A stretch of DNA of 46,905 nt from a virus (Duplodnaviria; Caudoviricetes), in IMG/VR virus record IMGVR_UViG_3300023283_000212, positions 1 through 46,905 of that record. One strand, written 5' to 3'. The notes beneath the pieces are model-generated. The model was not told the DNA's origin, did no database searches, and saw only the letters and a list, made by a program, of their open reading frames with translations. How positions within the stretch are numbered: position 1 is the first letter of the stretch; each line of letters opens with the position of its first letter. A program made the position numbers and the translations under genes. This document shows, piece by piece, positions 3,101-17,979 of this stretch.

Positions 3101-6100
3101 AGCTGCTGCCGGCCGAACGGCAAGTCGCCGCCACTTTCCGCGGGGCCCCGGCGATCGCGACACAACACTGGGCCCTCTGGGGCGATGTGCCGAAAAAGAT
3201 TCGCGCGCGCCATTTGCACCTGGTCGAGAAGCGCGGCTACGCCCCCCTCCGCTCCCCCGAAAACGCGGTCCAGTTGGAGGACTTGCTCGGGGACCTTGAA
3301 CAGTCGGCGGCCGAAGCGCTCGAGCTGGTGGGGTACTTGCGCCCGGAGGACGCACCGAAAGGGTGGCCGTGGGCGCTACTGACCGACGGCGAGCGGCTGC
3401 TGGCGGTCAGCGCCCCTTATTACGACTACCTCACCGCGCAGGGCTATACGTTCGCCGCCGGCGACGCGGCGTTTGCGGCGGCGGGCGTGAGGTTCGTCGA
3501 GCTTCACCGAAACGGCGAACTGCAAGGGGTCCTGGCGCCGCTCGGGATTGGAGACGAAATTTCGCTCGCCCAGGCGGAGCGTTGGAAAAAGCGGGCCAGC
3601 GAAGGGTCGGGGAAGAGCCTGAATATGGCGGCCGACGAGGCGCGACCCGATCCGGTGCTGCCCGGGGCGCCGCAGGAGACGCCGCCGACGCATGACGGGC
3701 CGCGGCGGCTGACGGCGCCGGGACCCGGCGAAGAGGACGTGACGCCGATTTCGGCGCCCGAGGTGGTCGAGGCGATCCGCCAGGTCGCGGCCGCCTTCGG
3801 CCGGGAGATTCCCTTGCGGGTCGGGCGGCTCGGCAAGCGGGCGTCGCTCGGCGTTTACAAAGTCGAGCCGATGGTGGCCCGCATCCGCCGGGCGCTCGAC
3901 TCCTCGACCGCCGCCCACGAGATCGGCCACGCGGTGGAACACATCGTCTTCGGTTGGCCCCAGGGCGGACCCTGGCGCCTGCCGCTGGTCGACCGGAGGA
4001 TTCAGCGCGAACTTGTCGAGCTGGGCAAGTTGCTCTACGGCGAGCGCAAACCGGCCGGCGGGTACAAGCGGGAGGGTTTTGCAGAGTTTATGCGGCTGTG
4101 GGTCGAAAACCGCGAACTCGCCCGCTCCGAAGCGCCGCGCTTCGCCCGCTGGTTCGAGAACGTCTTCCTCGAAGCGTTCCCCGCAGCGCGGGACGCGATC
4201 GACCTCGCGCGCGATGCGTTTACCCGCTGGGAGAAGCAGGGGAGCTACGAGCGCGGCCGGCAGGGGATCGTCGAGTTGACCTTTCCGGAGCGCATCCGGC
4301 GCTGGCGCAGGAAGTTCCTCGACCCGCTGAAGTGGATCGAGCAGGGACTCGAAATGCTCGACCCCTTGGCGCGGCTGGAGGTCCAGGCCGAGCAGTTGCT
4401 CGACCGGAAGCTCAAGCACGACGAGCGGGCCTATCTGCGCGGGAGCGCGCTGCGGATGACGCACGCCCCGATTGTGCGGCGGTGGGTCGAGCAGGGGATC
4501 ACCGATTTTCACGGGCGGCCGAACGGGCCGAGCCTCGATCAGATCCGCAGCCTCGTAAGCCAGCGGGAGCGGTGGGACTTTTTGGTTTACCTGTGGGCCC
4601 GCCGCGGGCTGCGGATGCTGCGCGACGAGCGCGGGCCGCGCGATCCGGGGCTGTCCGAAGCGGACGCCCAGCAGATCGTGCGCGAAGCCGAAGCGGACCC
4701 GAAGCGGCGGGTTCGCTGGCGGCTGGCGGCCCGCGAGGTGTACGACTGGAACGAGGGGGTGCTCGACTACGCGGCGCAAGCCTCGCCCGCGTTCGCCGAC
4801 GTCGTGCGGAGGATCCGCGCCCGCGATCCGGGCGAGTACATCCCGCTCTCGCGGGTGTTCGACGAGCTGGACGAAACGTACGCCCGCTCCGGCGGCGGCG
4901 CCTCGGCGCGGCTGGCGACCCTCGGCGGCTCGCTGCGGGGTTCCGCGCGGCGCATCAAAGAGCCCTTTGCGCAAATGATCGCAAACGCCGAGCGGATCGT
5001 GTATGCGGCCCACCAGCGGCACGTGCTCGATGCGATTCTGGCCCTGGCCCGCGTGCCGGGGATGGGCCGCGTCATCGAGGAGGTGCCGGTCGAGCAGCGA
5101 CCGGCGGCGGCGCGGACGATCGGCCAACTGCTCGAAGAGATCAACCGCAGACTGGCACCGGCCGCCAGCGCCCAAGTGGGCGGCGAGATCGACTCGGAGG
5201 CGCTCGCCCAGATGATCACGTTCTTCGCGCCGGCAGATCGGCCGAAGGGGGCCGACCCGATCGTGCCGCTCTACCAGGACGGCAAGGTCCGCTGGTACTA
5301 CCTCGAGGATTCGCTCTTCCGGTCCCTCGGCAGCCTGGAGATTTGGCGCGTGCAGCAGACCGGCGCGCTTGGCCTCATCCTGCGGGGGCTGGGCGCGCAC
5401 AACCGCTTCGTGAAGGCCGGCATCACGACCCTGCGGGCGAGCTTCGCGGTCGCCAACACGATCCGCGATGCGGGGGTCTACTTCTTCAACACGATGGAGC
5501 GGAACCCGATTCTGGCGGCGCTCTCGCTGCTCTCCGGGCACGCGCAGGTGATCTGGTCGGCACTGCCCGGGACGACCGAGACGAAGCTCGTGCGGCTCAT
5601 CAAGGATCGCGGCGGCGAGATCGCGCCCCGCTTGGGCCAGGACATTCCGCACACCAGGCGGGCGGCGCGGCGGGTGTTCGGGTGGCGCGTGCGCGATCTG
5701 CCGAGCAACGCCTTCGACGCCTACCGCACGCTGATCGGCCTCCCGGAGCTCGGGCCGCGCGTCGCCGAGGCGCAGAATTACCTGCGCTCGATCGGGTTCA
5801 CGTGGGACGGCTCGCGCGAGCTGACGGTGCAGGAATCCCAGGAGATGATGGTCGCCTACAAGCAGGTGACCACCGATTTCACGGCGGCCGGTGAGCTCGC
5901 CCGCACGCTCAACCAGTTCATCCCCTTTTTCAACGCGGCCATCCAGGGACCGCGTGCCCTGGTCCGCGCGGCGCGGCGCGATCCGGCGGCGATGGCGGCG
6001 CGGGTCCTGTCGGTCGCCGCCCTGACCCTGCTGTACTGGTGGCAGAAGAAGGACGAAGAGTGGTACCGCGAGATCGACGATCACAGCAAGTATCTCTACT

Positions 6101-7260
6101 GGCTGTTCCGCTTCACCAACCCAATAACCGGGGAGGAAGAGCTGCTGCGGATTCCGCGGCCCTTCGACCACGGACAACTCTTCTCGGCCAGCGTGGAAGC
6201 GATGGCCGACGCCTGGTACCGCGAGGACCCCGAGGCGGTGACCGGGTGGATGGAGGTGTTTCGGGCTACTGCCACCCCGCCGCTGGCTCCGGCGTTGGTC
6301 GAAGAGGCCTTCGAGCAGGCGCTCAACTACGACGTCTTCTGGGAGCGGCCGATCGTACCGCGCGCCTACCAGGGGCAGTACGCGAGCCAGCAGTACAACG
6401 AGTACACGACCCGAGCGGCCCGCGCGCTCGCGAATCTGTCGGGCCAAGACCGCCTCAGCCCGATGCGGATCGACCACGCCATCCGCGGCCTGGCCGGTCC
6501 CCTCTCGCGCGACGTGCTGGAGACGGCCGGCACGCTCGGGATTCCGGTCGGACCCGATAAAGCGCTGGGCTGGAGCGAGATGGCCGACACGCCGGTCTTC
6601 GGCCGGCTGTTCCGCCGCGGGGGACCGCGGGGCTCGGGCGGCAAAAGCATCGACGCACTGTACGACCTGGCCGAGCGGCTCGACAAGCGCGGCAGGTCGC
6701 TCGAAGAGTCGCCCGACGAGCGGCGGCAGCGGCTCGCGATCGATGATGCGGTTACGGCGGTCAGCGCCCTGTTGCAGCTCCGCAAAGACGTGCGGCCGGG
6801 GCAGCCGCGGGCCGAACTGGTGAAGGAGGCCACGCGCATTGCGCAGGATGCGTTGCGGGCGGCCGGCACGCCGGAGCAGGCACCGGCGGAGCTCGATCGC
6901 GAGCCACTGCGGTATCTGCGCCGCAGCGCCGAAGCGCGGCGCAGAGCGGCACAACTCAAGCCGGGCGAGCGGCAGCCGGTGATCGTCGAAGCGGTCGGAG
7001 TGCTCGCCCGCCCGATCCCCTTGAGCGTCACCGCGCGCGAGCGCGAGGCGGGCCTCACGATCACCGAGAAACAGCGGAAGTGGAGAAACGACCGGAAGGT
7101 CGCCACCGAAACGCTCCGGCGGCTCGGCGTGACGCCGCGGGAGGCGATCGCCGACTTTGCCCGCTCGCTGCGAGGCGGTGAGCGGGCCCGACTGGAAAGG
7201 GCAAAACGTGGAGTCGCTCGAGCCTTTCGCGAGGCGGGGAATCGGGGCGATGGCCAGTGA
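1..7260 (+). CDS. C-terminal 2,419 aa of a giant polyvalent virion/ejection protein (begins at 45225 and wraps); zincin-like HExxH motifs, C-terminal LPD38-like domain
   Basis: Open frame from base 1. HELAH at 376-390 and HEIGH at 3916-3930. 'FIPFFNAAIQG...LLRIPRPFDHG...NYDVFWERPIVP...SPMRIDHAIRG' resembles LPD38. It is the last gene of a podovirus-type structural block. Confidence 0.8.
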   Translation, partial: QPGQQPPDIRGEIEALRAAEQPEQQPPDIRGEIEALRAAEQPGQQIAETFERLARETGVAARRAEPSAEQAEIARLAEAFGRQVVWFEPQQRGRAPKGFHDSRRPGTVFLNSQNTDRQSLYGILGHELAHDTGADLEAEFPEGLLAEALESYLGEANPRYAARVRRDPVIARKEAAARLIERFFEDDAFRAQVRRAEPDLWERIQALLERLLAWFRRAPQTEADRAVREALRVMRGKLDESAERPQEQPEPQSERREQPPRKEKVAAAETARKRQRHQIEEQVRREERMLREFFGKDLELAGDLARKPYFQSRLEAALEDLPERPLALDELLGTLRKRGAKKAELEFADFPTLYALRGKRKLPKGQLAAWLAGHRLRVETETLRDKQMRGQGPGYRERGTENLREILLTWPDAPAPLLGMHHRRSDVLAYVRVGDRRGADGEKVLYLENLQSDHEQAPAPKLQTPFARDWIPLALKRLLAEAADEGYDAVSWTSAEVQKERWRNVVTGGGAKWLEILYDEKIPGFLRKYSRQWGGKIEPVKTASGSGRAKFTTIDGAEIGIVGQPDRSANGRIETASVHYDIPGIGRGAMGVDRAELEEGRSGRTAAFERLLLTALERYEQDPESFSERVTNSVTRLGLRLTDQMRAALRHQPQILLASDAAGSLEGLPEEIAAALENLADYLYHVDGKTGRHNFRQALSERLGDGVLPYADVLWEHAQKTEIVEPAEPQPDDAPRMIVWDEHGGFDVSRVPPDVARDILAERDQWLGSPEAKQLKEVLEERSQLGEAEPREIPEADEARKLRALRDDAEHKLEEAKREHERQLSRRTKEIARERGVPKGRKANSLSKLKKYQPAIDAAERAARRDSEVQAAARAEQSALAEFEEFASAVAEQERQQQIAEHQRLVREHGEKKPGEILVNLRIPGDAIRIERWNPKQGKYLVDRGNFLESTGEFFPHTNTNVPVGETAYAVFRLYGTPDEARRRQAIDKQIIQAEREAANWRAEANRRAAEQRKDAEYAALFSETSPVKATLAKLLPAERQVAATFRGAPAIATQHWALWGDVPKKIRARHLHLVEKRGYAPLRSPENAVQLEDLLGDLEQSAAEALELVGYLRPEDAPKGWPWALLTDGERLLAVSAPYYDYLTAQGYTFAAGDAAFAAAGVRFVELHRNGELQGVLAPLGIGDEISLAQAERWKKRASEGSGKSLNMAADEARPDPVLPGAPQETPPTHDGPRRLTAPGPGEEDVTPISAPEVVEAIRQVAAAFGREIPLRVGRLGKRASLGVYKVEPMVARIRRALDSSTAAHEIGHAVEHIVFGWPQGGPWRLPLVDRRIQRELVELGKLLYGERKPAGGYKREGFAEFMRLWVENRELARSEAPRFARWFENVFLEAFPAARDAIDLARDAFTRWEKQGSYERGRQGIVELTFPERIRRWRRKFLDPLKWIEQGLEMLDPLARLEVQAEQLLDRKLKHDERAYLRGSALRMTHAPIVRRWVEQGITDFHGRPNGPSLDQIRSLVSQRERWDFLVYLWARRGLRMLRDERGPRDPGLSEADAQQIVREAEADPKRRVRWRLAAREVYDWNEGVLDYAAQASPAFADVVRRIRARDPGEYIPLSRVFDELDETYARSGGGASARLATLGGSLRGSARRIKEPFAQMIANAERIVYAAHQRHVLDAILALARVPGMGRVIEEVPVEQRPAAARTIGQLLEEINRRLAPAASAQVGGEIDSEALAQMITFFAPADRPKGADPIVPLYQDGKVRWYYLEDSLFRSLGSLEIWRVQQTGALGLILRGLGAHNRFVKAGITTLRASFAVANTIRDAGVYFFNTMERNPILAALSLLSGHAQVIWSALPGTTETKLVRLIKDRGGEIAPRLGQDIPHTRRAARRVFGWRVRDLPSNAFDAYRTLIGLPELGPRVAEAQNYLRSIGFTWDGSRELTVQESQEMMVAYKQVTTDFTAAGELARTLNQFIPFFNAAIQGPRALVRAARRDPAAMAARVLSVAALTLLYWWQKKDEEWYREIDDHSKYLYWLFRFTNPITGEEELLRIPRPFDHGQLFSASVEAMADAWYREDPEAVTGWMEVFRATATPPLAPALVEEAFEQALNYDVFWERPIVPRAYQGQYASQQYNEYTTRAARALANLSGQDRLSPMRIDHAIRGLAGPLSRDVLETAGTLGIPVGPDKALGWSEMADTPVFGRLFRRGGPRGSGGKSIDALYDLAERLDKRGRSLEESPDERRQRLAIDDAVTAVSALLQLRKDVRPGQPRAELVKEATRIAQDALRAAGTPEQAPAELDREPLRYLRRSAEARRRAAQLKPGERQPVIVEAVGVLARPIPLSVTAREREAGLTITEKQRKWRNDRKVATETLRRLGVTPREAIADFARSLRGGERARLERAKRGVARAFREAGNRGDGQ

Positions 7261-7761: not shown

Positions 7762-8452
7762 CTTAAAAGGGGTGTCGTCGGATTGGTAGTCCGATGACAT
7801 TCGCGGGCGGCTTCACAGGCAGAGAACGGATGAGCATCATGCCCGAAGGCAATCCGAGGCCCAAGATGTTGCGGGAGGATTTCGCGGGGTCCGCCCACGG
7901 TGCGGTGGATCGTGTTTCTCGTCGTGCTCTTCGCCCAGACACACAGAAGACCAAACGAGCGAAAGGACCTGATGGGCCGCGCAGGTGAGCGGGAGGGGAA
8001 GCCCCCGTATCACTGACGCACATCAGTTTTGGACGGCACCTGCGCGGCCCGGCAGATCCTTTCAAAAGTTTTTTTCGCGCGCAACTCGCGACGACCAACC
8101 ACGTTCGCGTGCCGCTGGCCGGCGGGAACGAAATTCTTGGCGCCGCAGCGCTTGACGTGCGCCGCCCGGGCCGCTTATCTTGGAAGCCGTCCAAAATAGA
8201 TGTGCGTTTCGCCCCCTCTCGGGCACTCCGCGACCAGCCACTTTTTCCAGTGGCGCACGCTGTCGCTGACCGAGGCCGGTGTGACGCACACATTGGCCGG
8301 TCGGAGCACATCCCGGCTTGGGCCGGTCAGCCCAGCGGAGCTACTTGCAGCACCGCCGGCGGCGCAGGTTTTTCGTACCGGGCCTGCGCTGCCTGGCGGG
8401 TGCTTGTCGCTCCGCAGAGCACGGAGTGCTGCGTCATGTCCCGCGATAGGAT

Positions 8453-8515
8453 CGGTCAGCCGCTTGTTTTTCCCGCTGCGGGCGCCGCCGGGAGGACGGC
8501 GAAAAAGGCTGACCG
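8453..8515 (+). promoter_or_regulatory. Long hairpin directly upstream of the integrase start codon
   Basis: CGGTCAGCC...TTTTTC pairs with GAAAAA-GGCTGACCG, ending 2 nt before ATG 8518. Confidence 0.5.
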
Positions 8516-8517
8516 CC

Positions 8518-9447
8518 ATGAATCTCCCTTCCCTACTCGCCCGTTTCGCGACGGAAAATCCGCGCCTCGATTCGCACCGCTCGGTCGAGGAGTACCGTTC
8601 GACGGTGCGCGTCTTTTGCCGCTGGTGGCGCACGCGGGGCGAAACCGCCGAGCCGCGCATCGCCGATCTGACCGATGCGGCGATCGCCGAGTGGCTGCGC
8701 GCTTTGGACGCGGCCGAGTACGCCCGGCCGACGATCAACAAGCACCGCCGGCAACTGGTGGCGCTGCTCGGCTGGGCCTGGGCCGAACACCTGCTGGCCG
8801 CGCCGCCCCGGGTGAAAAAGTACACCGAGCCCCGGCGCTGCCGGTCCGCCTTTACGCCCCGAGAGTTCCAGGAGCTCCTCGATGCGGCCGGGCGTCGCGA
8901 CGGGTATGTGGGGGGCGTGCCGGCCGGGATCTTCTGGCAGGCGCTGCTCTCGACGATTGCGACCTCGGGCGGGCGAATCAACGCAGTGATGCTCTCCCGT
9001 CGCGCGGAGTTCGACCCGCAGCGGCGGACGCTGCGGCTGGACTGCAAAGTCCAGAAGCAGCAGGCCGATCAAGTCTTCGTCCTTCCACCCACGACCGCAG
9101 CCGTGCTCGGGCGTTTGATCGCGATGCACGAGCAGGAACGGATTTTCGGTTGCTGGCCGCACGATGCGCGTCGTGGGTGGAAGACGTTGACCCGCCACTA
9201 CCGGCACATTCTGCAGGCCGCCGGACTGCCGCACCGCTCGCGCCGGGACCTCTTCCACAAGATCCGCGCGAGCGTCGCCACCTGGATCGCCGCCGAGCTC
9301 GGCGAGGAGGAAGCCCGCAAGTACCTGGGCCATTCGAACGTGCGCGTGACGCGCAGCTATCTCGATCTCTCGCAGCTCCCGAGCATCCGCGACCTGTCGG
9401 GCGTGTTGCCGCAGTTCGAGGTGGGCGACGTGCGGCTGGTGGGGTGA
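8518..9447 (+). CDS. int: Tyrosine recombinase / phage integrase
   Basis: SAM-like N-terminus; catalytic R (SGGRINAV), HxxR (FHKIR), LGH and Y (TRSY). Confidence 0.9.
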   Translation: MNLPSLLARFATENPRLDSHRSVEEYRSTVRVFCRWWRTRGETAEPRIADLTDAAIAEWLRALDAAEYARPTINKHRRQLVALLGWAWAEHLLAAPPRVKKYTEPRRCRSAFTPREFQELLDAAGRRDGYVGGVPAGIFWQALLSTIATSGGRINAVMLSRRAEFDPQRRTLRLDCKVQKQQADQVFVLPPTTAAVLGRLIAMHEQERIFGCWPHDARRGWKTLTRHYRHILQAAGLPHRSRRDLFHKIRASVATWIAAELGEEEARKYLGHSNVRVTRSYLDLSQLPSIRDLSGVLPQFEVGDVRLVG

Positions 9448-10163: not shown

Positions 10164-10594
10164 AAACCAATAACGGGCCGAGCGACCCGCTATCGATCAC
10201 GCAATCCGAGCTCGTGTTTCCCGGCCGACCTAACGGGCCGAGCGACCCGCTATCGATCACGCAATCCGAGCTCGTGTTTCCCGGCCGACCTAACGGGCCG
10301 AGCGACCCGCTATCGATCACGCAATCCGAGCTCGTGTTTCCCGGCCGACCGGTGGTGCAGGTGAGCTGCGTCGCGAGGTTTCGGGTCTGGGAAAGCCGCT
10401 GCGGCCGGTATCGCGTAGTCCACGCGCATGTCACGCTCGGCGAGGACCTTCCGCGCGGCCGGCGGTGGCCCGACCGGTACACGGCGCAGCAGCGAGACGA
10501 GGCGGGCTGGCGCGTTTTGTCGAGGCACCGCAAGCGGACCCGCGCGCTTGCCGCCTGCCGCCGACACGCGGGAAGAAAGCGAGGCCCGGCATGA
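10160..10594 (+). CDS. Hypothetical protein with three 20-aa repeats
   Basis: ATGA-coupled; GGAG RBS; (NGPSDPLSITQSELVFPGRP)x3. Confidence 0.65.
   Translation: MKTNNGPSDPLSITQSELVFPGRPNGPSDPLSITQSELVFPGRPNGPSDPLSITQSELVFPGRPVVQVSCVARFRVWESRCGRYRVVHAHVTLGEDLPRGRRWPDRYTAQQRDEAGWRVLSRHRKRTRALAACRRHAGRKRGPA
10171..10350 (+). repeat. Perfect 60-bp tandem repeat x3
   Basis: Three identical adjacent units with no spacers. Confidence 0.95.
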
Positions 10595-10613
10595 GCGAAC
10601 ACGAAAAACAACC

Positions 10614-10703
10614 AGGCAACGTCCAAGATCACGGGGCGGCCGTGATCGACATTGATTTCAAAACCGACGACGCCGGCCGCTCCCGTGCATCGTTTTGTTC
10701 GCC
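10614..10703 (-). other. attC-like site A (left boundary of the array)
   Basis: AGGCAAC-gtccaa-GATCACGGGGCGGCCG...CGGCCGC-t-CCCGTG-c-ATC-gtttt-GTTCGCC. Confidence 0.8.
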
Positions 10704-10727
10704 GCTTTTTGGCGGAAGGAGTTGACC

Positions 10728-11066
10728 ATGCCCGCACCGAAACAACCATGCCAGACATTGCCGCAGTGGTTGAAACAGAATCTTGGGCCGCGCTGTTTGG
10801 CGCCATTGACCGGAACCGATTCCAAAGCGCTTTCCGCTGCAGTGCAGATTGTTGCGCTGTACGCATACCATCCAGCGCCACAGGTCGCGGAAGCATTCGG
10901 CCTGACCGTGATGCAGATCCAGCAATCGTGTTGGCCGTTGGCGTACCATGCCATCGCGCACGTGATGGACTGGACTGACCGCGGCGAGTTGTGGCGCGAG
11001 GCGAAGTTGCCATCGATTCCAGTTGGCATTTGCAAGTTTGAGTCGCGAGAAGACGTGTTCGTGTAG
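10728..11066 (+). CDS. Cassette hypothetical protein
   Basis: AAGGAG RBS, ATG 10728; stop 2 nt before the next core site. Confidence 0.7.
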   Translation: MPAPKQPCQTLPQWLKQNLGPRCLAPLTGTDSKALSAAVQIVALYAYHPAPQVAEAFGLTVMQIQQSCWPLAYHAIAHVMDWTDRGELWREAKLPSIPVGICKFESREDVFV

Positions 11067-11067
11067 C

Positions 11068-11088
11068 GACGAACTATGATTATCAGGA
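11068..11088 (-). other. Short simple recombination site B
   Basis: GACGAAC-TATGA-TTATCAGG, sharing AACTATGATTATC with site G. Confidence 0.55.
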
Positions 11089-11338
11089 TTTCGCGATGCC
11101 CGGACCAGTCTCAGACTCATGGATGCGACGGCTTGGTGACCTTTTAAGGTCCGGCGGGGTAACGCCCGTGCTAATAGGCTGGCCGTTCAGTTGCTCGCTT
11201 GGACCGAGAGCGGAGGCAGCGCCATGACGCAGCCCTCCGTGGTTAGCAGGAGCCGTGGCGTCAGCGAATCGGTTGGGTACAGCACGGCTTGGCCGCTGGC
11301 ATGCGCTCACTGCTGATGCCAGCCCCGTGTTTTGATGC

Positions 11339-11462
11339 AGAGAACGACTGAGTTCACGCGGCCACGGGCCACGGAGAAAAGACGATGAAACAGACCACAC
11401 GAGAACAACCAGCGTCGAAGCGCGAGGGCGGTAGTGGCTCGGCGTGCAACGATTTGTTATCC
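11339..11462 (-). other. attC-like site C (contains RBS and ATG 11385)
   Basis: AGAGAAC-gactga-GTTCACGCGGCCAC...GTGGCtcgGCGTG-c-AAC-gattt-GTTATCC. Confidence 0.8.
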
Positions 11463-12185
11463 GTCGTCTCGTTTGGCGGCGGAATCAACAGTACGGCGTT
11501 GCTGATAGGTTTACACGAACGCGGGCAGACGCCGGACTTGGTGATGTTCGCAGACACCGGAGGCGAGAAGCCGGAGACATACGAGCACATCGCATTCATG
11601 GTGATTTGGTGCGGCCAGCGAGGAATGCCGATCAGGATTGTTGCGGAAACGCAAACGCTTGAGGACGACTGCCGCAACCGCGAGACGTTGCCAGGTAGGG
11701 TGTTTGGCTTCGGATCGTGCAGCGAGCATTTCAAGATAAGGCCGCAGCGCCGCTACCTGCGCGAACAGGGAATCGACGCCGTAACGTGGTTGGTTGGATT
11801 CCATGCGGGCGAACAGCGGCGAGCATGGAGAGGAGCGACCGGAAACGACACAATCCGATACCCGCTGATCGAATGGGGCTGGCATCAAGAGGATTGCATT
11901 GCCGCGATCAAGCGGCACGGCATGTCCGTGCCCGTGAAGTCCGCCTGCTTTTATTGTCCCTCAATGACGAAACGGGAAGTTCTGCGCTTGCGACGCAGCC
12001 ACCCGGAATTATTTGAGCGGGCGATTGAGATGGAACGCGATGCCATCGAATCCGGGAATCTGCAAACCGTGAAAGGTTTGGGACGCCACTGGAGCTGGGA
12101 ACAGCTGGCGACTGCCGACGCGGCACAATTGCGGTTGTTCGAGGATTGTCAGGTCCCGCTTTGTGACGTGTGTTTCGACGGATAA
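11385..12185 (+). CDS. PAPS reductase (CysH)-like / adenine nucleotide alpha-hydrolase family protein
   Basis: SFGGGINS PP-loop, FADTGGE, YPL and SACFYCP motifs. Confidence 0.85.
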   Translation: MKQTTREQPASKREGGSGSACNDLLSVVSFGGGINSTALLIGLHERGQTPDLVMFADTGGEKPETYEHIAFMVIWCGQRGMPIRIVAETQTLEDDCRNRETLPGRVFGFGSCSEHFKIRPQRRYLREQGIDAVTWLVGFHAGEQRRAWRGATGNDTIRYPLIEWGWHQEDCIAAIKRHGMSVPVKSACFYCPSMTKREVLRLRRSHPELFERAIEMERDAIESGNLQTVKGLGRHWSWEQLATADAAQLRLFEDCQVPLCDVCFDG

Positions 12186-12278
12186 CGACTGAGTTCGCGC
12201 GGCCACGGGCCGGAGAGAAAACGTATGAATGACGAGACGACAAAAAGCGAAGAACCAGCGTCGAAGCGCGAGTTATCC
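12180..12278 (-). other. Decayed attC-like site D (paralog of site C with a 30-nt deletion in the right arm)
   Basis: Left arm is near-identical to site C. The right arm jumps from GCGCGAG to TTATCC. Confidence 0.7.
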
Positions 12279-12809
12279 GTTTTTTCGCGTGAGATCGCGG
12301 AACAAATTGGAGACTGGATCGCACAGGGCCAGCAGTATGCGCAACAAGAGCAGGCCGACGAACCGTACTGGGACCACGTTTGCGCCGAAATTCGCGAGTA
12401 CCTCGATCGAGCGCATGACATTGGATGGCACGCCGCCGCACACGCCGCGATTACCGTTTGCAACGTCCGTGCCGAGCGAGGCGACGACATCGGAACGCCG
12501 CGAAGCAATGAAGCGGCAAAGTGTGGATTGCAGATCGAGGCCGTGTTGGTGACGCACACAATGACGTTGCCGCGCGAATACCAGAGAGACGAGAAGTTGC
12601 CGGCCCCTGTGGGAGGCGATGAGCCGGAGTGCCCACATTGCGGGACCGTGCACGAAATGCCGAAGTGGGTCGAACAGTACCACACGTTCAATTGCGATTG
12701 CGGTTGGGCGTTTCAAGCTGAGCGGGAAACCGTCATTGTGTCGCGACCGCTCGAATACCGTGAGTGGACCAAGGTAACCGGGTTGCCGGACCAACGGAGA
12801 AACCCATGA
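12225..12809 (+). CDS. Cassette hypothetical protein with Zn-ribbon (CPHC...CDC)
   Basis: GGAGAG RBS inside site D. Reads into site E and stops at the ATGA overlap. Confidence 0.7.
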   Translation: MNDETTKSEEPASKRELSVFSREIAEQIGDWIAQGQQYAQQEQADEPYWDHVCAEIREYLDRAHDIGWHAAAHAAITVCNVRAERGDDIGTPRSNEAAKCGLQIEAVLVTHTMTLPREYQRDEKLPAPVGGDEPECPHCGTVHEMPKWVEQYHTFNCDCGWAFQAERETVIVSRPLEYREWTKVTGLPDQRRNP

Positions 12810-12890
12810 ATCAACGGACGATGTACAACGAATCGATTGACGTTGACAAACCGAAAGACGAGGCAACTCCGGTTGACCGCCTTGTTATCC
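12760..12890 (-). other. Decayed attC-like site E (left AAC core lost)
   Basis: gaccaa-GGTAACCGGGTTGCC...GGCAAC-t-CCGGTT-g-ACC-gcctt-GTTATCC. GTG stands where AAC is expected. Confidence 0.7.
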
Positions 12891-13282
12891 TGCCTGTCAA
12901 AGCGGTGACCATCTCCCAGCCGTTTGCATCGTTGATTGCTGACGGTGCCAAGTTTGTTGAGAACCGGACGTGGGAGTGCCGATACCGTGGCCCGATCGCG
13001 ATTCATGCAGGGAAGGGGACGCAGTATCTGGACCGCCGCGAATTGCGGGAATACCCGAACGGCGGAATCGTGGCCGTGGCGAACCTGTTGGCGTGCATGC
13101 CGTTGGATTCGATGCGGCGCATCAGCCGGTCGCAACGCATCCAGCGAACAGAGTTGACGATTGGCGAAGTGCTGGACCATGAACACACGGAAGGTCCGTG
13201 GTGTTGGATTTTGAGCGACGTGAAACCGTGCAAGTTCTTTCCGTGCCGTGGGGCGCAGGGACTGTGGGACTTTGCTGGATAA
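12806..13282 (+). CDS. ASCH domain protein
   Basis: KAVTISQPFASLIADGAKFVENRTW...RGPIAIHAG...GPWCWIL...RGAQGLW. Confidence 0.9.
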   Translation: MNQRTMYNESIDVDKPKDEATPVDRLVILPVKAVTISQPFASLIADGAKFVENRTWECRYRGPIAIHAGKGTQYLDRRELREYPNGGIVAVANLLACMPLDSMRRISRSQRIQRTELTIGEVLDHEHTEGPWCWILSDVKPCKFFPCRGAQGLWDFAG

Positions 13283-13405
13283 CGCTGGTGATAACCGGAC
13301 CACGGACCAACGGAGTTGACGTTGAATGACCAAGGAAGTTGACAACCAGATTGACGGTGGAACTGCCGAGACGGTAGTGGCTCCGTGTTCATCACATTGT
13401 TATGT
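13277..13405 (-). other. attC-like site F (contains RBS and ATG 13326)
   Basis: GGATAAC-gctggt-GATAACCGGACCAC...GTGG-c-TCCG-t-GTT-c-ATC-acatt-GTTATGT. Confidence 0.8.
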
Positions 13406-13940
13406 GCCGTATCGGACAATCTTGATTGATCCCCCGTGGCCGCAAGTGATGAGCGGAAAGTACAAGACAGCGAAGAATCAGCGGGCCGCCGATTTGCCAT
13501 ACAACCCGATGACGCTGGAGGAAATGTTGCGGTTGCCTGTGAAGGCATTGGGCAGTGATGACGCCCATTTATGGCTGTGGACAACCAATCAATTCCTCGA
13601 GGACGGCTTCGTGTTGATGCGTGCATGGGGGTTCAAGTATTTGGCGGCGATCCACGCGATTAAGCCGAACGGGATCGGCAATTACTTCGTGCATCGGACG
13701 CAAACGCTGTTGTTCGGGTACAAGACCAAGTGCAAGTTTCCGTTGGAGCGGTACAAGCCGAACATCATCGAAGTGCCGGACCCAAGGCGGCACAGCGAGA
13801 AGTGGGACGAAACGTATGAGTACATCGAGTCCGTCTCGCCCGGCCCGCGTGTCGAGCTGTTCGCACGCCGGAAACGTCCCGGCTGGGACGTGTGGGGCAA
13901 CGAAGTGGACTCGGACATCGAGTTGGAAGTAGGCACATAA
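13326..13940 (+). CDS. MT-A70 family N6-adenine methyltransferase
   Basis: YRTILIDPPW, HLWLWTTN, AWGFKY, HSEK and ELFARR...GWDVWGNE motifs. Confidence 0.9.
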   Translation: MTKEVDNQIDGGTAETVVAPCSSHCYVPYRTILIDPPWPQVMSGKYKTAKNQRAADLPYNPMTLEEMLRLPVKALGSDDAHLWLWTTNQFLEDGFVLMRAWGFKYLAAIHAIKPNGIGNYFVHRTQTLLFGYKTKCKFPLERYKPNIIEVPDPRRHSEKWDETYEYIESVSPGPRVELFARRKRPGWDVWGNEVDSDIELEVGT

Positions 13941-13955
13941 CTATGATTATCCAGC
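13935..13955 (-). other. Short simple recombination site G (contains ATG 13943)
   Basis: ACATAAC-TATGA-TTATCCAGC. TTATCCAGC is the complement of this cassette's end GCTGGATAA. Confidence 0.65.
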
Positions 13956-14254
13956 CGTTTCCACCGCGAGACGGCAACGAATGGGATTGCCAGTGCGCCC
14001 GTTGCGGATCGTCCGCAGATTGGCGGGAGTGTGAATCGTGCGACGAGGACGGCTTTGACGGGCACGATTGCGGCGAGGATTGCTGCATGTGCCTGTGTCC
14101 AAAAGAAAACGTTCCGTGCCAGTTTTGCGACGGCCACGGCGGAGATTATTGGTGCCTATCATCGCGCGAGTGGTGTGAGGCGAATCCACTAGAAGGACGA
14201 GAGCAAATCGAGCGAGGACAGATCGAGTGGTTCCGTGTCCGTGATGCTGGATAA
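13943..14254 (+). CDS. Cys-rich Zn-finger cassette protein
   Basis: Multiple CxxC motifs; TAA lies in the core of site H. Confidence 0.75.
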   Translation: MIIQPFPPRDGNEWDCQCARCGSSADWRECESCDEDGFDGHDCGEDCCMCLCPKENVPCQFCDGHGGDYWCLSSREWCEANPLEGREQIERGQIEWFRVRDAG

Positions 14255-14338
14255 CGACCAGCGTAACCGGGACCGCCCGGTTGACGTGGAATACAGAGTT
14301 GACGCGGAGGCGGTCTCCGGTTGACGCATTTGTTCTTC
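14249..14338 (-). other. attC-like site H
   Basis: GGATAAC-gaccag-CGTAACCGGGACCGCC...GGCGGTC-t-CCGGTT-g-ACG-cattt-GTTCTTC. Confidence 0.85.
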
Positions 14339-14354
14339 AGTTTTTGGTGACGAT

Positions 14355-14798
14355 ATGCGAAAAGCGAGACTGATAGAAGACGCCGAAAACGACGTCGTCC
14401 ACGGCAATGGTCGGGAGCAGATTCGAGCATTGTGTGAGCGTGCTCGATTCCAATCCGAGTGGTATTCAGTGCGTTGGAAACGGCTGCATGAATATCTTCG
14501 CGACCATGCGGACCAAGACACGTTCGAGCGATCCTGTAACATCATGGCGAACGGAACTGCCGACTCGATGGAACCGCCAACGTACGGGCAGATTTTGAAT
14601 GTGTTGCAGCAGGCCATCGAGCAGTCGATAGCGTTGGCAGATACGGGCAGCCATGCCCACAAATCGCGGTTCGATCCGGATGGCGTTGGCGAAATTCCTC
14701 CGGGTTGGCGAGTGGTTGAAGCGATGACGGAACGACTCAAGGACGGGCTGAAATGGGGGACGTCGCTGATGCGGCGATCCACGAGCACTGTTGACTGA
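14355..14798 (+). CDS. Cassette hypothetical protein
   Basis: The ORF fills the interval between sites H and I. Confidence 0.7.
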   Translation: MRKARLIEDAENDVVHGNGREQIRALCERARFQSEWYSVRWKRLHEYLRDHADQDTFERSCNIMANGTADSMEPPTYGQILNVLQQAIEQSIALADTGSHAHKSRFDPDGVGEIPPGWRVVEAMTERLKDGLKWGTSLMRRSTSTVD

Positions 14799-14882
14799 AG
14801 AACGTTTCGGATCACCGGGCGGAAAGAAAGCTATGAGTACAGAAACAGCGTTGCCCGCTCCGGTGCATCCGGCTGGTTATGT
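14797..14882 (-). other. attC-like site I (contains ATG 14833)
   Basis: GAAGAAC-gtttc-GGATCACCGGGCGG...CCGC-t-CCGGTG-c-ATCC-ggctg-GTTATGT. Confidence 0.8.
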
Positions 14883-15243
14883 GCCGCATCCGTTGCGTGT
14901 GCAGCGAAAGCGGACCAAGGGATTCCGGTTGCAATCAGGCGTCATTTGCGTGACAAGGCCCGGCCCGTGGGGAAACCCGTTCAAGATGCAGTCAGCACTC
15001 GAAGCGGGCTACGCGAACACCGAAGCCGAGGCCCGTGCGTTGTGCGTCGAGTGTTTCGAGGATTGGCTGTTAAAAGGTGACCTTTCCGAGTGGTGGTTTG
15101 GTGCAAGCCGTGAATCGTGGATGTGGATGCGAGAGAACTTGTCAACGCTGGCGAGTCAGAAGGTGGCGTGCTTCTGTCCGCTGGATCGTCCGTGTCACGC
15201 CGACGTGCTGGCAAAGTGGGCACCGATGGCGTGTCCGTTTTAG
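14833..15243 (+). CDS. DUF4326 domain protein
   Basis: RVQRKRTKG...VTRPGPWGNPF...ACFCPLDRPCHADVL. Confidence 0.85.
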   Translation: MSTETALPAPVHPAGYVPHPLRVQRKRTKGFRLQSGVICVTRPGPWGNPFKMQSALEAGYANTEAEARALCVECFEDWLLKGDLSEWWFGASRESWMWMRENLSTLASQKVACFCPLDRPCHADVLAKWAPMACPF

Positions 15244-15245
15244 GC

Positions 15246-15265
15246 ACATAACTTGGTCGTTATGC
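15246..15265 (-). other. Short simple site J (copy of terminal site N)
   Basis: ACATAAC-TTGGTC-GTTATGC. Confidence 0.65.
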
Positions 15266-15377
15266 CGCAAGTTGCCGAGGTTGCTAAGCGAGTTGCCAAG
15301 CGGAGTTTTGGTGGACGGAAAAAAGTGAGCAGGCGAGGCGTAACTACCTGAAAGAGTCCCAGCTTACGGCCGCCGAG
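15249..15377 (+). repeat. Internal copy of the array's right boundary and the 5' part of the replication gene (16953-17175)
   Basis: Near-identical sequence. It has a single copy of the upstream duplicated unit and lacks 21 nt between two GTTGCCAAG repeats, which removes the ATG. Confidence 0.9.
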
Positions 15378-15437
15378 GTCGATCAGGATTGGCCCAACGA
15401 TGACAAGTTGGATGATTTTCTGATCCGGCAACAGTCC

Positions 15438-15569
15438 ACATAACGTTAAAGATCACCGGGCACATGGCCCAACGGGATAGGCGATGGAACAACCAAACAA
15501 CGTAGCCGAAGGATTGGACGTGGAAACGCCGGAAGACGAATGTGCTCCGTGTGCATCGCCTTGTTATCG
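15438..15569 (-). other. attC-like site K (contains ATG 15484)
   Basis: ACATAAC-gttaaa-GATCACCGGGCACAT...ATGTGC-t-CCG-t-GTG-c-ATC-gcctt-GTTATCG. Confidence 0.85.
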
Positions 15570-15672
15570 GGATTCTCGGACGCGGATTCAGCGATTGTTG
15601 AATTACAAACGATACATTGATTGGTTAATTGAAAAGGAGCTGGAAAATGTGGACAGGCAACGACACGCTTGA
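15484..15672 (+). CDS. Small cassette protein (first of two genes in cassette K)
   Basis: Starts inside the attC-like loop, like neighbouring cassette genes. Confidence 0.5.
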   Translation: MEQPNNVAEGLDVETPEDECAPCASPCYRDSRTRIQRLLNYKRYIDWLIEKELENVDRQRHA

Positions 15673-16189
15673 CGCTTTGCGATCGAAGGCAGCGTCGATG
15701 ACGACGGGAACCATTTGCGTGAACATTGAGCAACTGAATGGGTTTGGCCGCGTTCTCCGGGTCTCGGAAGAGATCATCGAAGAGGCCAAAGAGACGCGTA
15801 CATGGCCAGACAAGCGGATCAGCGCAAAGCTGTTGTACGAGCTTCAGGACGCGCTCAAGGCGTGCGGGAACATGGCGAAGAAATTGAAACACGCACCGGA
15901 GGAACTGTGCGGTGAGAGTCTGCGGTATTTTCGGGACGGAAACATGATGTGCTGTGTGTTCGGCGACTTCGAGAACTTGCAGGAAAGTCCAGCAGGTTTT
16001 GGAAAAACGGACGACGAAGCGTATGAAGACTTGAAGCAGCAGATCGTGTGTGAGACGTGTGGCGGCGATGGTCGTGTTCCGGTGACGAATACGTGGTCTG
16101 TGGACCGTGGCACGAAGTTTCGGCGTGATTACGAGGAACAAGTTACGGGAGAATGCCCAGCGTGTCACGGCGTTGGGTTTTCCCGATAA
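15647..16189 (+). CDS. Cassette hypothetical protein with DnaJ-type CxxCxGxG motifs
   Basis: AAGGAG RBS; CETCGGDG and CPACHGVG; TAA lies in the core of site L. Confidence 0.75.
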   Translation: MWTGNDTLDALRSKAASMTTGTICVNIEQLNGFGRVLRVSEEIIEEAKETRTWPDKRISAKLLYELQDALKACGNMAKKLKHAPEELCGESLRYFRDGNMMCCVFGDFENLQESPAGFGKTDDEAYEDLKQQIVCETCGGDGRVPVTNTWSVDRGTKFRRDYEEQVTGECPACHGVGFSR

Positions 16190-16274
16190 CGACTGAGGTC
16201 AGCGGGCGGCGGCCGTTGACTTTGATTTCATGTGCAGCGTCAACCGCCGCTCCGTCTGCACCGTTTTGTTATCT
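16184..16274 (-). other. attC-like site L
   Basis: CGATAAC-gactga-GGTCAGCGGGCGGCGG...CCGCCGC-t-CCG-t-CTG-c-ACC-gtttt-GTTATCT. Confidence 0.85.
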
Positions 16275-16286
16275 GCGGATCATGCA

Positions 16287-16628
16287 ATGAGCAACCTACG
16301 AAGCGACTGCCGCGACCTTGTGAAAGACCGTGAAGCCGGGGACGTTTGGCGAACACATATCGAGCGACTGTGCTACCAGATCGACGAAGTTGAGGAACGC
16401 TGGCACGCAGCAGAGCGGAAGTTGAACGCCGCCCGTGAGGCGTTGGAGCAGATCGTATGCACGGAAGGCGAAGACCGTGGCGTGGTAATGGTCGATCACG
16501 AAAGCCCGACACGGTACGACTCGGAGCGAAAATGTCAGGTGTATTTGTGCGAGAACTTTTCGCCGCTGGGGGACGCTTTGATTTCATTGTGGGATGGACT
16601 TCAACGCGACGTTGAGTTGAGCAGATAA
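16287..16628 (+). CDS. Cassette hypothetical protein (coiled coil); alternative start 16230 inside site L
   Basis: The ORF fills the L-M interval; TAA lies in the core of site M. Confidence 0.7.
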   Translation: MSNLRSDCRDLVKDREAGDVWRTHIERLCYQIDEVEERWHAAERKLNAAREALEQIVCTEGEDRGVVMVDHESPTRYDSERKCQVYLCENFSPLGDALISLWDGLQRDVELSR

Positions 16629-16713
16629 CGTCCAAGGTCACCGGGCCGCCGCCAGTGACCTCGAACTTGAATTAACGCGCCGTCGGCGGCTCCGGTGCAC
16701 CGTTTTGTTATCC
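16623..16713 (-). other. attC-like site M
   Basis: AGATAAC-gtccaa-GGTCACCGGGCCGCCG...CGGCGGC-t-CCGGTG-c-ACC-gtttt-GTTATCC. Confidence 0.85.
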
Positions 16714-16722
16714 GGATTTCAC

Positions 16723-16956
16723 ATGGCGACTACGAGAACACCACCGACGTTTCAGTTTGATGAGCGATCAGTGCTGAAGTGTCCGGGCTGTCAGACACCG
16801 CTGAAGCGAGTGCGTCAGACAGGCGGCATGATGTTGAACGATGATCAGTTTGACGCGATCAAAGCGGGCGACTTCTATTGCGATCAGTGTCCGGGCGATC
16901 GCGGCAAGTCAGGTTTGCGATACTTTTGGAAGGCCGAGTTGGGGATTGACGGATAA
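16723..16956 (+). CDS. Small Zn-ribbon cassette protein
   Basis: CPGC...CDQC; TAA lies in the core of site N. Confidence 0.7.
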   Translation: MATTRTPPTFQFDERSVLKCPGCQTPLKRVRQTGGMMLNDDQFDAIKAGDFYCDQCPGDRGKSGLRYFWKAELGIDG

Positions 16957-16970
16957 CTTGGTCGTTATGC
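16951..16970 (-). other. Terminal simple site N, candidate attI-like insertion point
   Basis: GGATAAC-TTGGTC-GTTATGC: two inverted cores 6 nt apart. It sits at the array end that is 5' in attC orientation. Confidence 0.6.
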
Positions 16971-17605
16971 CGCAAGTTGCCGAGGTTGCTGAGCGAGTTG
17001 CCAAGCTATGGACGGCAGTTTCCAAGCGGAGTTTTGTTATGCCGCAAGTTGCCGAGGTTGCTAAGCGAGTTGCCAAGCTATGGATGGCAGTTGCCAAGCG
17101 GAGTTTTGGTGGACGGAAAAAAGTGAGCAGGCGAGGCGTAACTACCTGAAAGAGTCCCAGCTTACGGCCGCCGAGATCGAGCTGTTGGTGATCTTGGGGG
17201 GCTGTGGAAAAGTTGTCCGCAGAGACGGCAACTGGCTGGTTGCCAAGGTTGCCAAGCGTGAGTTTGCCGGCCGGGGATTCGCGGCCGAAACGCTCCGCAA
17301 GGCGGCTGTCCGACTGTCCGAGTCCGAGTCCGCGCTGGTCCGAATCGAGCCGGGAAAAGGCGGAAAACCCAGCGTTTATTGGGTTGATTGCGGCCGCCTG
17401 TCCGAGTTGTCCGAGCTGCCGCGAGCGAGTTTCGCCGGCGGGAAAAAATTTCCGCCGCCGGAGCTTGGCAACTCGCTTGGCAACCTTGGCAACTCGCTAC
17501 CCCGTGTAAAAGAAACAAGCGCATTACGCCGTGCATCCGTGAACCGTGAACCGTGCGCTCGTGCGGGAGCAAGCCGCGTGCCGGTTGCCGAGCCGGTTGC
17601 CAAGA
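16964..17605. repeat. GTTGCC(A/G)AG iteron-like repeats and a 72-bp duplication; putative replication origin
   Basis: Many direct copies in 16976-17256 and 17584-17604. Inverted copies CTTGGCAAC at 17464, 17476 and 17485 lie inside the rep-like gene. Confidence 0.6.
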
Positions 17606-17979
17606 TCGACGACATCGACGACATCGACGGCCTCGGGGCGATCCTTAGATCGGATCGCCCCTGGTCGGATCTCCGCGACTGGCACGTGAGGACCGGGGAC
17701 CTGAGGCTCGCCCGACTACTGTACGCACACAGTGGGCAGACGGGGCAACTGGCAGAGCAGGGATACGCGAAGCTGTTCCTGGCGCAGTTTCACCACTGCG
17801 CAAATCTGCGGAAGGCGCACATACGCGATCCGAACCGCAGCGACGGGCAGGGGGGACGCCACAACGCGGCGGCGATCCTGGCGTCGCTCGTACGCAGCGG
17901 CCGGCGAGATGTGATCCAAAACGCCTCCTGGGAGTGGGCCGAATCGCAACTGCGCCGCCGGCAGCCGGTCGAAGATTGA
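17080..17979 (+). CDS. Putative replication initiator (winged-helix-like N-terminus, internal iterons)
   Basis: wHTH-like 'AETLRKAAVRLSES...VRIEPGKGGKPSVYWVD' followed by a low-complexity repeat-bearing linker, as in lambda O-like initiators. Confidence 0.5.
   Translation: MDGSCQAEFWWTEKSEQARRNYLKESQLTAAEIELLVILGGCGKVVRRDGNWLVAKVAKREFAGRGFAAETLRKAAVRLSESESALVRIEPGKGGKPSVYWVDCGRLSELSELPRASFAGGKKFPPPELGNSLGNLGNSLPRVKETSALRRASVNREPCARAGASRVPVAEPVAKIDDIDDIDGLGAILRSDRPWSDLRDWHVRTGDLRLARLLYAHSGQTGQLAEQGYAKLFLAQFHHCANLRKAHIRDPNRSDGQGGRHNAAAILASLVRSGRRDVIQNASWEWAESQLRRRQPVED

Follow-up and report, generated by a model that had tools for sequence, protein, structure and literature searches.

Organization of the phage attC array

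The IMG/VR record IMGVR_UViG_3300023283_000212 is a whole virus record of the Caudoviricetes, with direct terminal repeats and 100% completeness, and was analysed over its full length of 46,905 nucleotides (hereafter the window). Its proteins include a tyrosine recombinase, a CsrA-like regulator, a terminase, a portal-like protein, and capsid and tail proteins, and nearly all of its genes are on the plus strand. From 10620 to 16956 it carries an array of attC recombination sites and small genes, all of the latter also on the plus strand, in which the attC sites are inverted relative to the genes. The G+C content of this segment is 0.569, as against 0.681 and 0.675 in its flanks.

The array opens with attC site s1 (10614-10703, with AAC to GTT at 10618-10699 and a predicted crossover at 10619/10620), the top strand of which is the minus strand, as it is for every site named below. 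A 112-aa gene without assigned function follows (10728-11066), in a cassette with complementary ends, and then a hairpin-less junction (11068-11086) of the same type as that at 13939, with a decayed unit continuing to 11344. Site s2 (11339-11462; AAC to GTT at 11343-11458) includes in its long loop a Shine-Dalgarno-like motif and the ATG at 11385 of a PAPS-reductase-domain (SspD-like) gene (11385-12185), the first 26 codons of which lie within the site. Two decayed sites come next: s3 (12180-12278) lacks its right arm and has a left arm like that of s2, whilst s4 (12760-12890), additional to the sites first described, has lost its left AAC, the rest being intact. The 194-aa gene between them (12225-12809), with no assigned function, reads through the left arm of s4, within which an ASCH-domain gene (12806-13282) starts. 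Site s5 (13277-13405; 13281-13401) again has a long loop, with the ATG at 13326 of an MT-A70 DNA methyltransferase gene (13326-13940).

Junction M (13935-13952, crossover at 13940/13941) has no hairpin and introduces a 103-aa Cys-rich gene (13943-14254), in a unit with ends complementary over 9 nt. Site s6 (14249-14338; 14253-14334) precedes a 147-aa gene without assigned function (14355-14798), and s7 (14797-14882; 14801-14878; crossover at 14802/14803) precedes a DUF4326 gene that starts in its loop (14833-15243). Between two crossovers there is then T' (15246-15443), consisting of a copy of the terminal hairpin-less site and a partial copy of 17036-17180. Site s8 (15438-15569; 15442-15565), with a long loop and the ATG at 15484, leads a cassette (15484-16189) with open reading frames (ORFs) at 15484-15672 and 15629-16189, and s9 (16184-16274; 16188-16270) leads a 132-aa gene (16230-16628), none of these having an assigned function. 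The last site, s10 (16623-16713; 16627-16709), leads a small Cys-containing gene (16705-16956) that is 83 aa long from a TTG but more likely starts at the ATG at 16724. The array closes at T (16951-16970, crossover at 16956/16957), a terminal hairpin-less site of AAC, 6 nt and GTT that is a candidate attI-like entry site.

The integron integrase model TIGR02249 had no match anywhere in the complete phage genome. With at least two attC sites within a few kb and no intI in the genome, the array agrees with the definition of a cluster of attC sites lacking integron integrases (CALIN). No intI adjoins it, as would be the case in a complete integron, and its genes are on the bottom strand with attC in front, rather than on the top strand and followed by their attC as in a canonical cassette.

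Orientation of the attC sites

AAC..GTT pairs were scored under bottom- and top-strand geometry with a home-made scanner, utilizing the aadA7 bottom strand printed in Table S3 of Qi et al. 2023 (PMC9892861) as reference. A relaxed threshold returned 11 candidates in the window, eight of which were the array sites, all bottom-like on the plus strand; the other three (7954, 13082 and 42940) had poor L boxes and no covariance-model hit, and were dropped. At a stricter threshold the region 10.5-17.1 kb contained eight sites, whereas 100 dinucleotide shuffles gave a mean of 0.01 (maximum 1). All eight have R boxes (RYYYAAC/GTTRRRY), L boxes and an unpaired spacer in a single-strand hairpin, the purine/pyrimidine pattern of the R boxes being as loose as it is in the chromosomal family described below. 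The preliminary description had placed the 6-nt spacer first and the bulged bases in the right arm of the coding strand, and each of the eight sites indeed reads, on the plus strand, AAC, 6-nt spacer, L', right-arm bulged T and C/G, 5-nt spacer, GTT, with one spacer off by one base in s7. This geometry equals that of the aadA7 bottom strand in the above table, and the extrahelical bases, located on the right arm of the plus strand, correspond to the bottom-strand R''-L'' arm. Seven sites have C and one has G at the first bulge; C replacing G was also seen in IntI-linked chromosomal sites. R-box pairing probability was higher on the plus strand at all eight sites. In the control arrays, that of the Vibrio anguillarum integron was top-like on the coding strand at 14 of 14 sites and that of TJE1 at three of three, and the well-scoring sites in both Shewanella M16-3 arrays stand behind their genes.

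Chromosomal relatives were retrieved with a right-arm motif taken from the window, giving 80 genome loci, 56 of them titled Planctomycetota. According to a home-made gene-strand score, 74 of 90 inter-site segments in chromosomal loci were canonical, seven inverted and nine unclear; by locus (n=27), 23 were canonical, one inverted and three tied. Two of the chromosomal arrays adjoin a divergent intI, L082 (TIGR02249 409 bits, cut-off 265) and L099. In L099, G/TT of an attI-like site marks the start of the first cassette and the complementary RYYYAAC its end, and the crossover of the family was therefore assigned to bottom-strand AA/C. A covariance model built from 55 of the 77 listed chromosomal sites, in top-strand orientation, hit the minus strand of the window at s10 (83.7 bits), s1 (75.6 bits), s9 (71.4 bits), s6 (64.3 bits) and s7 (51.8 bits). 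Four further hits on the same strand were partial and weaker: s2 (a short one), s5 and s8, which were assigned by geometry, and the decayed s4 (18.4 bits). The best hit on the plus strand was 10.8 bits. By the gene-strand score, all seven inter-site segments of the array read on the plus strand, as do all four cargo genes with family matches. The claim that every site is inverted relative to its gene thus stands on the geometry of the eight sites, on the strand of the model hits and on the agreement with chromosomal arrays anchored by IntI and attI.

The seven TAA/C positions at which the crossover had been predicted (12185, 13282, 13940, 14254, 16189, 16628 and 16956) are all real, though only 13282, 14254, 16189 and 16628 precede an intact attC; 12185 opens the site without a right arm, and 13940 and 16956 have no hairpin. 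The intact sites at 10618, 11343, 14801 and 15442 do not overlap the stop codon of the upstream gene. A short ORF (10591-10725) spans s1, in which the crossover AAC is read in frame as Asn, a rule that fails at the other intact sites.

Crossover position and the mobile unit

Joints between array segments were taken from the contigs of four public sequencing runs (X1 to X4) of one study, X1 being possibly the source of the window; no RNA dataset was listed as containing the region. Six joints were listed at 98% likeness, of which five are at a left-hand AAC core and none (0/6) at a right-hand GTT; the resolution of the joints is 3-13 nt. Two of the five have only AAC in common, namely 13938->14801 (depth 12.9 in X1 and 38.2 in X2) and 14800->16955 (X4). 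The joint 14249->16185 shares 9 nt and connects s6 to s9, whilst 15240->13930 shares 13 nt, was found in X3 with a shorter side of 151 nt, and can also be deduced from loose ends of X1 and X2; together with 13938->14801 it gives junction M changed neighbours. The fifth joint exits at the C of the terminal AAC (16957) and runs through approximately 830 unplaced letters into T-like sequence (X2, depth 31.3). The sixth sits among right-flank repeats. In X4 a loose end leaves at 16193, three bases past the AAC of s9. Joints 11388->12862, 11820->18715, 19000->18572 and 17079/17400 were set aside as belonging to other organisms or to repeats.

These contigs indicate that changes of cassette order, as well as losses and gains, have occurred in natural samples at the predicted point of cleavage. 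Chaining of high-depth contigs gave a main X2 order of MT-A70, DUF4326, M, s9, s10, new DNA and T, as compared with MT-A70, M, s6, DUF4326, T', s8, s9, s10 and T in the window. The s6 and s8 cassettes have a depth of only about 6 in X2, whereas s7 keeps the DUF4326 gene in both orders, and a contig found in X1 and X2 (14801-15253) is exactly s7 and the DUF4326 gene downstream of it. From the joints at left AAC cores and their absence at right GTT, the mobile unit is therefore attC plus the downstream gene, in keeping with the cassette of attC, gene and stop, cut at AA/C of the left core, that had been proposed. Inversion, AA/C crossover and this unit are all well supported. The ends of each intact single cassette are mutually complementary over 8-11 nt (six compared directly; U2 and U5-U10 less M, seven with U2). 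The stretch 10321-13938 is a single unbranched contig in X1 and X2. A contig of X3/X4 with a depth of about 28 matches 11359-11388 and 12862-12890 with other flanks, and is probably another element with the same long-loop type of attC.

Possible translation leaders within attC

The upstream site contains 15-28 codons of seven of the 12 listed array ORFs, several of which follow a GGAG-like motif. Family matches begin at residue 27 in the PAPS reductase, 29-35 in the ASCH protein, 27-29 in the MT-A70 methyltransferase and 17-26 in the DUF4326 protein; in all four cargo genes the match thus starts approximately where the attC arm ends, and on this sequence evidence attC appears to act as the leader of its gene. 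Amongst the best 80 of 593 confirmed MT-A70 homologues, most are distant and without attC, and the closest are ordinary viral genes, likewise without attC. Only 11 of these 80 loci had any scanner site, mostly a weak one, and an MT-A70 gene behind a bottom-like site, with the look of an inverted cassette, was found in just three of them (L111, L134 and L169). At 28-42% identity, the 20 DUF4326 loci had diverged too far for their boundaries to be mapped.

The hairpin-less sites T, M and T'

Site T occupies the position that attI would have for the top strand, and was observed with three left neighbours and, at its copy T', a fourth. Read on the plus strand, T resembles a top-strand attC over its spacer and R' end, and its 22-mer also ends canonical attC top strands in three metagenome loci; a metagenome scan with this 22-mer yielded those three canonical cassette loci and no related phages. 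The spacing of T (AAC, 6 nt, GTT) differs from that of the L099 attI, and no conserved attI was evident at the ends of other inverted arrays, which vary. The 119 loci that matched the M-junction motif were treated as chance, two having a scanner site and neither of these near the motif. The T' unit (15252-15443), with its partial copy of 17036-17180 and two AA/C bounds, is covered in X1, X3 and X4.

By analogy, T and M would fit use as double-stranded sites. The attG sites of Loot et al. (bioRxiv 10.1101/2022.09.11.507474) are described as hairpin-less double-stranded IntI targets with a GWT core, and in delta-attI cassettes units bounded by non-attC sites are reported to be mobile (PMC12901181). 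T and M resemble both in being hairpin-less; unlike those described, they are phage sites, and T has 6 nt between AAC and GTT and resembles the end of a top-strand attC.

Distribution among viral records

The attC family was found in 19 distinct viral records with model hits, after removal of duplicates (L003, L017 and L020); L008 was kept as the control, and L009, L028 and L111 had no hit. Sixteen of the 19 are inverted, one (L005, a provirus) is canonical and two could not be assigned, and of 65 sites 47 were inverted, nine canonical and nine unclear, these counts being from records that are not independent of one another. No integron integrase scored over the cut-off in any of the 20 viral records searched, five of them at least 90% complete. 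A narrow two-arm pattern returned nothing in viral contigs. The canonical array of L005 (84-5086) has nine sites directly beside portal- and capsid-like genes, with a repeated unit of approximately 480 nt without a clear ORF.

Flanking regions

To the left of the array the window encodes a 2336-aa protein with an LPD38 domain, a large polyvalent protein (250-7260), the tyrosine recombinase (plus strand, 8200-9447, likely start 8518), which matches a generic phage integrase family (PHROG_1, E 8.8e-19) and is not IntI, and, a little before the array, a 60-nt tandem repeat in three exact copies (10171-10350). To the right there is a 72-nt tandem duplication with GTTGCC repeats (16964-17107), with inverted copies at 17462-17497; a single-copy form is also present in X1 and X2 contigs, and one X4 record spans the duplication. 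The plus-strand gene that follows (17080-17979; 299 aa) contains GTTGCC repeats and could be a replication initiator with iterons; it had no family match, and no relative was found.

Source of the recombination activity and alternative explanations

The inverted array, itself without an integrase, is best explained by rearrangement of its units at the left AA/C, likely by a host IntI, probably of a Planctomycete, acting in trans, a reading to which we assign a probability of about 0.75. A host enzyme is invoked because no IntI is present in the phage, and none scored over the cut-off in 20 other viral records with such sites. IntI would bind the folded plus strand and cut at AA/C, excising circles of C, attC, gene and AA, which may then reinsert at other attC sites or at the hairpin-less double-stranded sites T (16956) and M (13940), in the manner of attI or attG. 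The cassettes would be read from the rightward phage transcript, with the long attC loops providing a ribosome-binding site and start codon, by which each unit would be a self-contained translation module; units distant from T would mostly decay into fixed phage genes. The preliminary description had further held that the array needs no Pc, the cassette promoter of integrons, being co-oriented with the phage early operon. This is only plausible, and some upstream promoter would simply do the job of Pc; a promoter scan was at chance level (two found, 1.9 expected).

Several observations weigh against this explanation. The chromosomal loci behind the covariance model came from a window-derived motif and were oriented by geometry, so that independent anchoring comes from the IntI/attI context rather than from the model; the gene-strand caller was home-made. 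Folding of both strands, suggested earlier as a check, favoured the coding strand in R-box pairing, but minimum free energy preferred it at only five of the eight sites, with one tie and two preferring the minus strand, and folding energy alone fails to pick a strand. Site s1 is intact though farthest from T, contrary to a simple gradient of decay, and unit M is mobile although it carries no hairpin itself. The array joints were read from contigs of a single study, which do not fix the direction or age of events; 14800->16955 is a weak joint, with a depth of 3.1 and a shorter side of 24 nt, and the two joints sharing 9 and 13 nt could come from microhomology. Finally, one row at 85% likeness does exit at a right-hand GTT, from 16709 through 13 letters to 12889 (depth 5.5 in X2 and 2.5 in X4). 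As no loose end at 16709 was listed at 98% likeness, this row was read as another cassette with a similar attC.

It could instead be that the different orders are coexisting lineages arising by microhomology or phage-recombinase exchange, with attC serving mainly as gene junctions and translation leaders. The two joints with longer common stretches, the decayed sites s3, s4 and M, and the unbranched 10321-13938 contig would all suit such an account, but two joints share only AAC, and all five array joints are at the left core, with none in the stems or right arms, where similarity is greater. Variant cassettes are, moreover, nearly identical between runs (one substitution listed), which dates the rearrangements as recent by comparison with point mutation, and we regard this account as unlikely. 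Attribution of the shuffling to the phage's own tyrosine recombinase (8518-9447) is quite unlikely: it has an open frame, shares the strand of the array and lies approximately 1.2 kb before it, and no IntI is available in the phage or, over the cut-off, in the 20 other viral records, yet it matches only generic Xer-like models, with neither TIGR02249 nor a significant BLASTP match to IntI. The array sites, on the other hand, retain the bulges and spacers that IntI uses in strand choice (Bouvier 2009, PMC2727003) and belong to a chromosomal attC family linked to IntI, and even weak matches to the IntI model occur in only three of the 20 viral records, most of which are fragments. The low G+C content, the chromosomal attC family and the canonical array of the same family in viral record L005 would be compatible with a host-chromosome array captured in reverse, its true genes being on the minus strand. 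The plus-strand position of all four family-matched genes contradicts this, as do the scores of all seven inter-site segments, and homologues of the cargo are numerous in viral contigs; reverse capture is accordingly highly improbable. For the inversion as such, an account based on the lagging strand (Loot 2017) is conceivable.

Relationship to known systems and significance

The array functions like integron cassettes, and is a CALIN rather than a complete integron, without the canonical cassette layout. It shares with canonical attC sites, as characterized by Bouvier 2009 and Nivina 2016 (PMC5027507), the R and L boxes, unpaired spacer, extrahelical bases, AAC crossover and complementary cassette ends. 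A canonical array has intI and attI, its most recently gained cassette beside Pc, and top-strand genes that are each followed by attC; in the phage array attC precedes a bottom-strand gene, and the base at the first bulge is C in most sites. Ghaly 2021 (PMC8352920) names a Planctomycetes class of attC. The Planctomycete chromosomal sites (L082 and L099, among others) are of the same sequence family as those of the window, as the covariance-model hits attest, but they are canonical in most loci whilst the array in the window is wholly inverted. Nivina 2016 states that promoter-facing cassettes have never been seen in mobile or chromosomal integrons. Lone inverted-gene cassettes nonetheless occur in chromosomal arrays, single cassettes with a bottom-strand ORF of 211-246 aa being present in the otherwise canonical L029 (2000-2928), L055 (4189-5014) and L099 (2139-3060).

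The closest parallels are the phage CALINs of Qi et al. 2023, which lack intI, carry methyltransferase cargo as this array does, and have bottom strands that IntI1 recombines. Bottom-strand-preferred IntI recombination has thus been published for other sites, such as those of PH101, the array of which is there called typical. In the GenBank record of PH101 the bottom strands of the tested sites and the surrounding annotated genes are both on the minus strand; an inverted attC has therefore probably been put through a recombination assay already, with PH101. The attC bottom strand is also on the annotated coding strand in two phages of that study, KR534323 (75960-77984, L341) and MW202573 (2073-3734, L009), the latter array being probably inverted, whilst attC2 of P12002L lies between convergent genes and is ambiguous. 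The text of Qi et al., as consulted, is silent on inversion of gene versus attC, on start codons in attC and on natural rearrangement, and their TJE1 array is canonical. No literature on wholly inverted phage attC arrays was found, in a search that covered subscription journals thinly.

Integron work assumes a layout of gene and then attC, beside Pc, and the strand selectivity of recombination has been explained as guarding that orientation. An inverted class that rearranges without an integrase of its own would mean, if true, that host IntI could drive the shuffling of phage genes and add to the mosaicism of phages. Once inserted at a chromosomal attI, an inverted cassette would point towards the promoter, and for this reason phage and host pools could share an enzyme and yet stay functionally apart. 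More tentatively, phages may hold a mirror-image cassette pool that uses host IntI, in which an attC in front makes cassettes of ordinary genes and provides the start of their translation, these cassettes being shuffled on population time scales and new ones entering at a promoter-distal hairpin-less site. The cargo is also present as ordinary phage genes without attC, which provides a testable handle on how cassettes arise, and if phages do hold such a pool, phage junctions would be a place to watch cassette creation.

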